Assembly: GCA_963765145.1 (NCBI GenBank) | Contig: CAVXVG010000020.1 | Span: forward strand, 1-64,000 | Length of the DNA stretch: 64,000 nucleotides | Source of the DNA: Parachlamydiales bacterium | GTDB lineage: Bacteria > Chlamydiota > Chlamydiia > Chlamydiales > JAJFMK01 | Direction: 5' to 3' | Notes under the pieces: generated by a model | Seen by the model: only the letters and a program-made list of their open reading frames with translations | What the model was told of the DNA's origin: nothing | Databases searched by the model: none | Translations under genes and position numbers: made by a program | Shown here: positions 25,715-27,605 of the stretch, one piece after another | Layout: every line of letters begins with the position of its first letter | Position numbering within the stretch: position 1 is the stretch's first letter

Positions 25715-25759
25715 ACGCCGTAGCGTTTGGAGTGCGAAACTCCCGTTTCGCTTTCACTT
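25715..25759 (+). repeat. family A solo left arm (A5)
   Basis: ACGCCGTAGCGTTTGGAGTGCGAAACTCCCGTTTCGCTTTCACTT, with compensatory changes in the inner hairpin. Confidence 0.88.
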
Positions 25760-25811
25760 TTTATAGGCTTTTGTAATAATACAATTTTTTCATAATTTTT
25801 AAGGTGATTAA

Positions 25812-26897
25812 ATGACATCTTCTCCTACAAATACTTATATCAATTATGTTCCGAGCGAAGAGCTTCTTAGGAAATTTTATGGAGCATTGTCATCCAATGA
25901 TTATCAATTTTCAGGATTGGTTCGAGATCCTAAATTGTTCGAGTATGCATATTTCTTTTCTGCAAGAGGCATTTTAACCGAAACTGACCGATTCTCTATC
26001 TCATTAAAAGGGAGAGCTATTCATGTTAATGCTGAAGCAACAATATATGAAGCTGTAGCAATTTTTATTGAGAAGCTAAGAAGAATTTTATGCGATTACC
26101 TAGATTGTTTTAGGCCTGCCGAAGTTTATCTCGTAAAGGATTTAGCGGATGCGCAAAATCCGTCTATTCGCTTGTTTGAAAGAGAATCTAATCAACATGA
26201 TGAGCGTGGTTTTTGTTCGCCAGTCGGTCCATTTGTGCTTGATTTATCCAAAGTACGCGGGGCTTGTCCGATAACAATTTATTCAGCCTTCATAGAGCCA
26301 GTGTTACCTACATTAGCAAAAACTTGTGGAGGTAGCCTTGCTGTTGAGGAAGTACAAGCATCGTTGAAATCATCTTCCAATCCAACCGTAGAACAGTTAG
26401 CTGGTCAAATGATGGTTTACTGTGGGCCGGACGCGTATATGGCATTACGCAGTCCTTACGTAAGAGAAAAATTGTGCGATTTGACATTGTCTTGTGCAGA
26501 TGGATCGTTTCCAGTGCATGCAAACCTTGTTATGATGCGTGGCGGCATGGATCTGCAACACAAGGCACTCTCAGCATTGAATGAACCTAATGCAACGCTC
26601 CATTTTAAACATGTGTCTAGTGAAACGCTTAAATGGTTTGTCGATTTTCTCTATTTAGAGGGAGAAGGTTTTATGGATAAAGCAAAAAGAGAATTGAATG
26701 AAGAAAATCGATTAAACTTAATGCAATTTATCAATGTAAATTATATTACACCTCTGTATCCTTTTAGCCAGCGCCTTGCCCACCTTGCTATCATTCCAAG
26801 TGCAGAAGACCACATATTCGAAAAAATTGATTACGATGCAATGCATAGAGAACTAGATAAACATCTTCCTGGCTACCAACTCAGTTCCGAACAATAA
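25812..26897 (+). CDS. BTB/POZ-domain protein (eukaryote-like, candidate effector)
   Basis: CDLTLSCADGSFPVHANLV...HVSSETLKWFVDFLY matches the BTB pattern. Confidence 0.7.
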   Translation: MTSSPTNTYINYVPSEELLRKFYGALSSNDYQFSGLVRDPKLFEYAYFFSARGILTETDRFSISLKGRAIHVNAEATIYEAVAIFIEKLRRILCDYLDCFRPAEVYLVKDLADAQNPSIRLFERESNQHDERGFCSPVGPFVLDLSKVRGACPITIYSAFIEPVLPTLAKTCGGSLAVEEVQASLKSSSNPTVEQLAGQMMVYCGPDAYMALRSPYVREKLCDLTLSCADGSFPVHANLVMMRGGMDLQHKALSALNEPNATLHFKHVSSETLKWFVDFLYLEGEGFMDKAKRELNEENRLNLMQFINVNYITPLYPFSQRLAHLAIIPSAEDHIFEKIDYDAMHRELDKHLPGYQLSSEQ

Positions 26898-26952
26898 GGC
26901 ATCTTTTTGCCCTTCACGCATGTGTGTAAACACTAAATAGAGGGGCTAGTTT

Positions 26953-26995
26953 CTTTACTCCGCAGCACTCCAAACGCGCTGCGGAGTAAAGGCAA
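26953..26995 (-). repeat. family A right-arm remnant (A6)
   Basis: 26965-26995 is the exact reverse complement of 4677-4707 (31 bp); it also forms a 14-bp stem, 26953-26966/26978-26991. Confidence 0.88.
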
Positions 26996-27029
26996 ATTCA
27001 AATTTGTACCCACGAAAAGTGGATGCAGG

Positions 27030-27503
27030 TTACGCAAGAGGGTCCATATTCTTCTCTCTTAGTTCGACTCTACCGCTCCATTTGCTAGTTGAAGATCCAA
27101 CCTCTTTAATCTCTAAACGTAATTGATGGTCAACAATTGGAGTGCCTCTGCATTGCGGGCAGGAGGCTAAAGCCTCTTTTACTATCGAAGAAGGATATGA
27201 CACATGACCTTCTGAAACTTTCCTGGTAGCGTGCCAACTGGTTAAGAGTTGTTTTGACTTAGCAAAGAAGTTTTGGGCTAAGCAATCAACATGAAAAGCA
27301 TGGCTGGGGCAAAAATAGACTTTGGGTTTGGAATCTTCTTCGAGGCATATAGCGCATTCGTTCGAAGTTTCGTTCGAAGTTTCTTTCGGAATGATCGGAA
27401 TGAAATATTCAGCTCTAACTTCTGATATTTGAGCCTTTTCCTGTTGAGTGCTCTCATGATAAATATTTTCCAGGTTACCAACCCAGTTCCGAACAATAGT
27501 CAC
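27030..27503 (-). CDS. RING-H2 finger protein, probably 5'-truncated
   Basis: CAIC-x11-CPSHAFHVDC-x40-CPQC; the ORF begins at the edge of element A7. Confidence 0.7.
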   Translation of the reverse strand: MTIVRNWVGNLENIYHESTQQEKAQISEVRAEYFIPIIPKETSNETSNECAICLEEDSKPKVYFCPSHAFHVDCLAQNFFAKSKQLLTSWHATRKVSEGHVSYPSSIVKEALASCPQCRGTPIVDHQLRLEIKEVGSSTSKWSGRVELREKNMDPLA

Positions 27504-27605
27504 TACGCGAAGCGTTTGGAGTGCTCTACGCCCGTTTAGCCTTTCACTTATTATTGAGAGTGAAAGGCTAAACGGGCGTAGAGCACTCCAAACGCTTCGC
27601 GTAGT
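27502..27605. repeat. family A palindromic element, copy A7
   Basis: 47-bp perfect arms ACTACGCGAAGCGTTTGGAGTGCTCTACGCCCGTTTAGCCTTTCACT around a 10-nt loop. Confidence 0.95.

Follow-up and report, generated by a model that had tools for sequence, protein, structure and literature searches.

We analysed the spacer between a uhpC-like transporter gene and dnaE in a chlamydia-like bacterium of the Parachlamydiales, where a gene for a BTB-domain protein and a RING-H2-like open reading frame (ORF) stand among copies of a palindromic repeat, here termed Family A. The spacer lies in the window, as we call the whole 64,000-nt stretch under study (positions 1 to 64,000 of contig CAVXVG010000020.1, C20 in our numbering). 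It is probably a lineage-specific patchwork holding three independent, partly decayed copies of Family A and no mobile unit. The initial annotation had seen in these palindromes the possible ends of a minimal gene-shuttling unit, and no support was found for the carrying of genes by Family A. Family A is instead a perfect-palindrome repeat, of the type of repetitive extragenic palindromes (REPs) and miniature inverted-repeat transposable elements (MITEs), that has multiplied in the source species, and it is a landing pad for an insertion sequence (IS) of the IS110 family and for an IS5-type element and MITEs. The source genome (G000) amounts to 2.68 Mb in 37 contigs, with 43.7% GC; as the assembly is 84.8% complete and has repeats at contig ends, all counts given here are floors.

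Family A was defined by its core, GCGTTTGGAGTGC, which stands in the consensus arm as ...TTCCGCGAA-GCGTTTGGAGTGC-TAAAC.... Full copies are about 105 nt long, with arms of 36-47 nt that are inverted repeats, and are non-coding, no ORF fitting into them. The window contains 12 exact cores, and 14 matches when up to two mismatches are allowed, compared to 1.36 expected; none of 100 shuffles reached 14. Across the genome, where up to one mismatch was allowed, 332 cores (270 of them exact) were counted at about 216 loci, and 190 of them form 95 tight palindromes with a core-to-core gap of 14-60 nt, mostly 56-57 nt. By our own ORF calls, 294 of the 332 cores are intergenic and are distributed over 189 of 2409 spacers. 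Among conserved spacers, Family A occupies 19 of 55 that are convergent, 15 of 588 tandem ones and 5 of 106 divergent ones. Exact cores number 270 in the source genome, seven in a complete congener (G001) and none in a second congener (G002) and 28 other genomes of the order, and a scan of GTDB with one genome per species returned a single chance match. Copy number, placement and gene-orientation bias together correspond to the behaviour of REP-like or MITE-like repeats. No Rfam family reached threshold for Family A or its intact copy A7, the sub-threshold look-alikes being long microRNA hairpins.

The focal features of the spacer are as follows.

25715..25759, plus strand: solo left arm of Family A, with its outer flank, an exact core at 25723-25735 and the full 24-nt inner arm
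25812..26897, plus strand: gene for the BTB-domain protein, 361 aa, with an N-terminal domain common to the aligned chlamydial relatives and a C-terminal BTB domain
26953..26991: A6, with an exact core (26965-26977, minus strand) in the loop of its own hairpin, which has a 14-bp stem (26953-26966 and 26978-26991)
27030..27503, minus strand: RING-H2-like ORF, 157 aa, between the A6 core and A7
27502..27605: A7, an intact Family A copy, with 47-nt arms (27502-27548 and 27559-27605), 100% complementary, around a 10-nt loop

The stem of A6 is complementary at 14 of 14 positions (RNA fold −26.1 kcal/mol, z −6.7), and its left outer flank runs straight into the right core with the outer flank of that side, 26 nt of the inner right arm being absent. 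The left flank, CTTTACTCCGCAGC, is of a common Family A type that also forms the left flank of copy A1 at 4680, and the right part is identical at 35 of 35 positions to C21:288887-288921. AGC is present at both edges of the deletion, and A6 is the sole mini-hairpin of this exact kind in the genome. Judged from its sequence, A6 would be a whole copy that lost its left core, inner arms and loop, and that has no free right end. Because it possesses a matching left flank of its own, it is a self-contained copy and not the partner of the solo arm. The element end that the initial annotation had placed at 26965 does coincide with an exact core, starting 67 nt past the last base of the BTB ORF (26897), but this core is the loop of a hairpin of its own rather than a free end.

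The solo arm was correctly described: it has an exact core and a full inner arm, and it ends 52 nt before the start of the BTB ORF at 25812. Its inner hairpin reads GCGAAAC-TCCC-GTTTCGC, and no right arm follows within 200 nt. The solo arm is identical to paralogous arms at 40 of 41 positions; as A6 is likewise near-identical to a paralog, age does not separate the two. Their outer flanks agree at one of six core-proximal positions, compared to six of six in 42 of the 95 true palindromes, a comparison that discriminates poorly in that 25 of the 95 also score one or less. Ends of nested elements are absent at the junctions 25759 and 26965. A7, for its part, is intact (RNA fold −96.9 kcal/mol, z −20.9). 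The spacer would then hold one intact copy (A7), one that lacks its right arm (25715-25759) and one with an internal deletion (A6), which may have arrived or decayed separately in permissive DNA, in a block probably reshaped by between-strain recombination and deletions.

Most split or solo arms elsewhere in the genome result from nested insertions of IS110-family and IS5-type elements. The 142 arms outside tight palindromes were sorted into these classes.

60 arms: break 5 nt inside the core, adjoining the inverted end GGCCTTGTTGCATAAT
6 arms: abut the end of an IS110-family element
3 arms: abut a third MITE
30 arms: keep a matching inner right arm but lack a full core on the second side; nested insertions cut most of the printed cases
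1 arm: at a contig end
42 arms: otherwise unexplained solo arms (22 on the plus strand, 20 on the minus strand)

The GGCC-ended elements comprise an IS5-type element and MITEs of about 170-400 nt, all with inverted ends of their own and duplicating the 9-mer GTGCTAAAC. The IS5-type transposase (DDE_Tnp_1_5 at 3.4e-30) is split into two ORFs in the copy examined, and of the 143 GGCC-type inverted ends counted genome-wide, 97 adjoin the Family A 9-mer or its complement. The second nested element, about 1.6 kb long, belongs to the IS110 family (DEDD_Tnp_IS110 4e-17, Transposase_20 4e-24) and is inserted within the right core between GCAC and TCCAAACGC; its junctions (...agtttagcac / IS / actccaaacgc) mark an identical site in five of five left ends and six of six right ends. 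Two unrelated mobile elements have in this way one repeat family as their fixed target, and one of the two is from IS110, a family now known for RNA-guided insertion. The source genome is unusually rich in nested palindromic repeats and could be used as a natural test set for target choice by such elements.

Target choice in IS110 and IS1111 is described as being made by bridge or seek RNAs (PMC11208160, PMC11187229, PMC12288879). The nested element resembles these families in its DEDD transposase, its single exact insertion sequence, its subterminal inverted repeats and its long non-coding end; it differs in that a guide RNA is seen only as an 8-nt candidate, TTTGGAGT. This octamer matches the Family A target and may be part of a guide RNA or a chance match. 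It is situated at about 1516-1523, in a 370-nt non-coding 3' part of the element, for which Rfam gave no match above threshold. In the copy at C18:59900-61800 (element at about 189-1796) the subterminal inverted repeats are TAATTGCG...CGCAATTA, and further copies lie at C29:48809-50502, C29:153169-154861, C27:237686-239731 and C29:27670-29650.

These nested insertions bear on the earlier supposition that the arms tolerate cargo, which leaned on a copy A4 with a loop of 150-170 nt. No copy of that kind exists in the window, whose five full copies all have core-to-core gaps of 56-58 nt. Another 21 core pairs in the genome have larger gaps, of 107-384 nt, and the enlarged loops found there are nested IS or MITE copies with their own inverted ends and target duplications. 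Every transposase located between Family A arms is part of a nested IS whose ends are not those of Family A, and the genome yielded no autonomous element that ends like Family A. Six matches to Y1_Tnp were detected as well, none with an adjoining Family A core by a comparison of coordinates in the 84.8% complete assembly.

The content of the spacer to the right of the BTB gene also argues for a patchwork. The RING-like ORF is indeed boxed between A6 and A7, as had been reported, and is probably a 5'-truncated remnant. Its residues 23-139 correspond to positions 181-294, in the C-terminal half, of a paralog of 307 aa (E 8e-9), with all Cys and His residues kept, and the only start of the ORF is a GTG abutting A7. 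The zf-RING_2 match (9.2e-5, 23.1 bits) falls under the cut-off of 27.3 bits, as does that obtained in the genome search (24.1 bits). Read with the general spacing rule for RING-H2 domains, the translation gives C-x2-C-x12-C-x2-H-x2-H-x2-C-x40-C-x2-C, with eight zinc ligands. No homolog was found outside the source genome. The first 15 codons of the ORF are antisense to the second copy of a direct repeat.

26856..26896, plus strand: first copy of the 41-nt direct repeat, forming the last 41 nt of the BTB ORF
27458..27498, plus strand: second copy, 88% identical, 3 nt before A7

The second copy encodes ...PGYQPSSEQ followed by a stop, a variant present in the database alleles P0003 and P0005, and is probably the leftover 3' end of another BTB allele. 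With a truncated RING-like ORF beside such a leftover, the region would be a patchwork and not a set of cassettes.

Comparison with relatives supports the earlier statement that the block between uhpC and dnaE is accessory, and it is lineage-specific. Its borders are formed by two conserved genes.

24102..25451, plus strand: gene for a uhpC-like MFS transporter (Pfam MFS_1, 1.6e-56), the conserved left neighbour, matched in relatives
27679..31353, plus strand: dnaE, DNA polymerase III alpha (Pfam DNA_pol3_alpha, 2.3e-97, plus other domains), the conserved right neighbour

These genes are about 62 nt apart in the congener G002, and of the 12 genomes that have both on one contig, 8 have them side by side. 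Nothing in the 62-nt spacer of G002 could be aligned with either end of the spacer in the source genome. In G001, uhpC and dnaE are separated by 5.4 kb encoding a pentapeptide protein together with an ARM/NACHT protein, and two further genomes carry other genes at this junction, a PFOR gene in G007 and a HAD hydrolase in G011, both with zero Family A cores. As the junction is broken in G007 and G011 without Family A, it is permissive regardless of the repeat. An IS110 right-end remnant, joined to the partial Family A right core GATTAGAGAACTCCAAAC, was observed beside the NACHT gene in the G001 insert (C1:1447500-1455500, at about 6375-6400).

Several observations pull against a patchwork of independent copies, beginning with those made at the locus itself. 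The two partial copies face each other as they would in a single element, and the solo arm breaks off in the loop, where hairpin cleavage would cut. Moreover, a full but degenerate palindrome stands at the corresponding place behind uhpC in G001, its core short by 2 nt and its left arm having the same GAAAC inner-arm start as the solo arm. From this sequence, an ancestral copy may have been split by an insertion into its loop. Such an event would agree with the earlier proposal that the arm at 25715 and the end at 26965 are one element having the 1.2-kb BTB gene as its loop, with the RING-like ORF as a second cassette, a proposal that also draws on the foreign composition of the BTB gene and its near lack of relatives. 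We regard it as extremely improbable. Apart from the left flank and missing inner arm of A6 and the poor flank match, which is weak on its own, the right flank of A6 is unlike that of the G001 palindrome and is shared with another copy. Among the 42 unexplained solo arms, the focal two make the only plus-then-minus pair around a gene; about 0.2 plus/minus solo pairs within 1.3 kb are expected under uniform placement. Half arms that a nested insertion does not explain bracket no second gene in the genome. The genome has eight tyrosine recombinase matches, the nearest (C20:66424) being 39 kb away and outside the window, and the RING-like ORF is a truncated fragment, no cassette. With A6 paired to itself, the loops explained by nested ISs and no integrase within 39 kb, the gene-shuttling unit is not upheld. 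Such a unit would have been a novel means of moving single genes in bacteria; the evidence speaks against it.

The remaining observations of this kind are genome-wide, and they were made on ORFs from a crude caller of our own (2446 in G000 and 2307 in G001, with 1398 reciprocal best hits at a median identity of 80%). In tandem spacers, Family A was enriched at junctions between core and accessory genes as compared to conserved junctions (odds ratio (OR) 2.55, p=0.002). Family A occurs on both sides of 20 of 2372 genes, compared to 13.8 ± 3.4 in shuffles (p=0.044), and 17 of these 20 have no ortholog in G001; IS110 transposases and ORFs lying within MITEs account for six of the 20, and among the others are a U-box protein (7.4e-12) and a second BTB protein (3e-4). 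Ubiquitin-type genes number 16 in the genome: three for BTB proteins plus the focal one, six U-box, four F-box-like and two RING. With the two focal genes left out, a core lies within 350 nt of 6 of 14 ubiquitin-type genes, compared to 79 of 634 (12.5%) other ORFs of at least 150 aa that lack an ortholog (one-sided p=0.005). With a limit of 150 nt the counts are 3 of 14 and 61 of 634 (p=0.15), and for flanking on both sides they are 2 of 14 and 6 of 634. We take the proximity of ubiquitin-type genes to Family A as a modest lead, from a test that was framed post hoc, depends on the threshold and includes 14 genes.

Such figures are what one would expect if the palindromes carried no genes but caused turnover, through hairpin breakage or through recombination at the copies and at the IS elements landing in them, so that effector-like genes are gained, truncated and exchanged there. 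Two further local observations fit: the differing uhpC-dnaE inserts of both congeners hold Family A copies or an IS110-end remnant, and right beside A7 are both the leftover of the BTB allele and the point at which the RING-like ORF is truncated. REPs, moreover, have been called transposition hot spots tied to genome plasticity (PMC1525189). We nevertheless consider this unlikely. Stratified by orientation and spacer length, the pooled comparison of core/accessory with conserved junctions gave an OR of 1.24 (p=0.30), with an effect of opposite sign in convergent spacers (OR 0.43, p=0.014); the uhpC-dnaE junction is equally broken in G007 and G011, which have no Family A; and co-location gives no direction, since accessory DNA may simply tolerate repeats. 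The suggestion of recombination hotspots made in the initial annotation may draw on the tandem spacers and the post hoc ubiquitin-type count, and receives no support from the pooled test. The more specific idea that Family A copies are sites of gain, swap and breakage of genes for ubiquitin-ligase mimics (BTB, U-box, RING, F-box) seems to us doubtful at best. Breaking and joining at Family A might in that case come from hairpin breakage in the loop together with the fixed landing of IS110-type and IS5-type elements, and Family A would shape the effector repertoire without being a cargo-carrying transposon.

A regulatory function, in which copies are kept as terminators, insulators or mRNA-end stabilisers of singly transcribed effector genes, is very unlikely in our view. 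It would account for the bias towards gene 3' ends seen in the conserved convergent spacers, for the position of A6, with its stable fold, between convergent ORFs, and for the solo arm after uhpC, which matches a terminator-like consensus with a small GC hairpin and then a T-rich run. Consensus terminator matches in the region, however, numbered 4, compared to 2.3 ± 1.6 in shuffles, and promoter matches 4, compared to 4.6 ± 2.0, neither being in excess, and in full copies the stem is preceded by T-runs and followed by A-runs, the opposite of what an intrinsic terminator shows. In a patchwork of independent copies, the arms may still double as weak terminators.

How single-core remnants such as A6 can form is illustrated by a larger repeat unit with inverted ends GATTTAAG..., which in some copies has a central Family A palindrome and in others a single core. 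Six printed copies were compared, three filled (C7:32168, C2:171719 and window 4695-4776) and three lacking the palindrome (C18:172466, C21:4450 and C29:184914). What sets the two forms apart is a segment with a direct GGAGTG at its borders, a difference that, on the sequences, would fit deletion better than target duplication; one-core remnants would then arise by short-homology deletion. Where spacers of the genome are filled, the matching spacers of G001 mostly lack a copy, at least one (C30:46022) having a copy in both genomes, and alignments of filled against empty spacers were too diverged to place the element ends. A core-only Family A remnant (C5:22343-22368) was also noted 260 nt from the start of a second BTB gene (C5:20593-22083), with a flank identical to that of A6 at 26 of 26 positions.

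Each Family A arm contains a small hairpin of its own, and its variants across the genome keep the pairing: GCTAAAC/GTTTAGC, GCGAAAC/GTTTCGC, GCGCAAC/GTTGCGC and GCGCAGC/GCTGCGC. Some palindromes are chimeric, with left and right arms of different variants. Variants and chimeras hint at selection on single arms, or at their copying. At C24:30300-33400, near-identical ORFs of 174 aa, each followed by a Family A palindrome, form a tandem array with a spacing of 570 nt, ORF and palindrome being duplicated as one unit.

Among known repeats, Correia/NEMIS, ERIC and the Rickettsia palindromic elements are MITEs that consist almost wholly of inverted repeats. By description they are like Family A in their length of about 100 nt, in being non-coding, intergenic and present in hundreds of copies, in varying between close relatives and in being nested. 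Family A is unlike bacterial MITEs in that no autonomous element with its ends was found in the genome. Integron cassettes have attC sites, imperfect palindromes next to single promoter-poor genes, and the focal locus recalls them by its palindromes beside single genes. Unlike cassettes, however, the locus has no integrase nearby and no same-direction array, its contents being one BTB gene and one truncated ORF on the opposite strand; Family A is scattered genome-wide at gene ends, and its half sites come from IS insertion or deletion. With the REPs and bacterial interspersed mosaic elements (BIMEs) of proteobacteria, Family A shares a high copy number (more than 100 per genome), an extragenic palindromic nature and specific sites of IS insertion. 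It differs from them in its size (about 105 nt, with 47-nt arms, compared to 20-40 nt for a REP), in having no RAYT-type transposase beside a copy, in its chlamydia-like host, and in being hit by two unrelated element types at two fixed positions. REPs are described as IS targets, including those of the IS110-family ISPpu9 and ISPpu10 (Tobes and Pareja 2006, PMC1525189). REP ends are reported to bear a GTAG or CGTC tag (PMC3733652), and neither terminus is present in the Family A consensus arm.

Of the two eukaryote-like domains claimed for the block, BTB holds up, by profile and by Foldseek, and RING does so in part, with the ligand spacing of RING-H2 but a profile match below cut-off, in a probably truncated ORF. 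The BTB domain is real. Taken as a single sequence, the protein gives a weak Pfam BTB match (0.042, 14.5 bits, compared to a cut-off of 20.5), but a profile built from it and eight relatives matched 44 of 44 BTB chains (best 3e-9, residues 202-321). The AlphaFold2 model has a mean predicted local distance difference test score of 68.9, with 10-residue block means of 65-87 over residues 221-320, and each of the top 24 Foldseek matches is a BTB domain, ZBTB8A (4.9e-4, target template modelling score 0.66) among them. A full-length homolog (L013) is present in a genome from another chlamydial family (G027), with 24% identity (E 7e-13) and its own BTB match at 2.2e-10. The N-terminal domain has no Pfam match. 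The gene is compositionally atypical, its GC content at third codon positions being 29.6%, compared to 43.6 ± 5.0% in conserved genes, and its sequence is single-copy in the source genome. Three close homologs (99%, 86% and 66% identical) were found among 5.8 billion proteins, and a further 199 genomes of the order gave five weak matches; two scans of metagenomes for loci that encode BTB relatives (queries P0001 and P0004) returned nothing. Ubiquitination-related effectors of environmental chlamydiae are described as accessory and lineage-specific and as evolving by duplication, in genomes that mobile elements are said not to litter (Domman et al. 2014, PMC4209131). The source genome departs from that picture: it has few such genes, yet it is full of nested MITEs and IS copies.

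Among public sequence runs, parts of the stretch were found only in Logan contigs of peat and soil metagenomes, and no RNA run is listed as containing them. Contigs of X1-X3 cover the BTB part at a depth of about 4-6, and positions 27093-27386 have zero cover in any of the contig sets X1-X4. Only two contig joints occur in X1-X4, one from 26990 to 27583 with a 21-letter side and the other from 25691 to 27504 with 23 foreign letters between; both are within repeated sequence and probably derive from paralogous copies.

Further repeats and Family A copies in the window are given below.

4695..4776: A1, a Family A copy inside the larger repeat unit that also exists without the palindrome
8933..9047: A2, a Family A copy
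14560..14641: A3, a Family A copy
25445..25518: small unrelated palindrome overlapping the uhpC stop, with 16-nt arms (25456-25471 and 25493-25508), 100% complementary
25540..25710: moderately repeated spacer sequence, with about 5-18 genome copies by its BLAST coverage profile
34519..34613: Family A copy between the convergent ORFs 33706-34449 (plus strand) and 34592-35668 (minus strand)

The small palindrome at the uhpC stop has copies in both G000 and G001, and the spacer repeat at 25540-25710 has paralogs at C27:213249-213397 and C18:100653-100777. Just upstream of uhpC, on the minus strand (21820-23955), there is an ORF of 711 aa that encodes an FHA domain and weakly matches the cytoplasmic domain of YscD, a type III secretion protein. 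Nested palindromes GTAGCTTAGGCTTTAG... occur in the window at 19259-19610 and 35698-35813, and many GGCC-ended MITEs have these sequences as their interior. Finally, another nested palindromic family, AACAGGGTGAACAGGATGAACAGGAT..., is present at 40960-41250 and 32451-32602, and also occurs within the third type of MITE that interrupts Family A arms.

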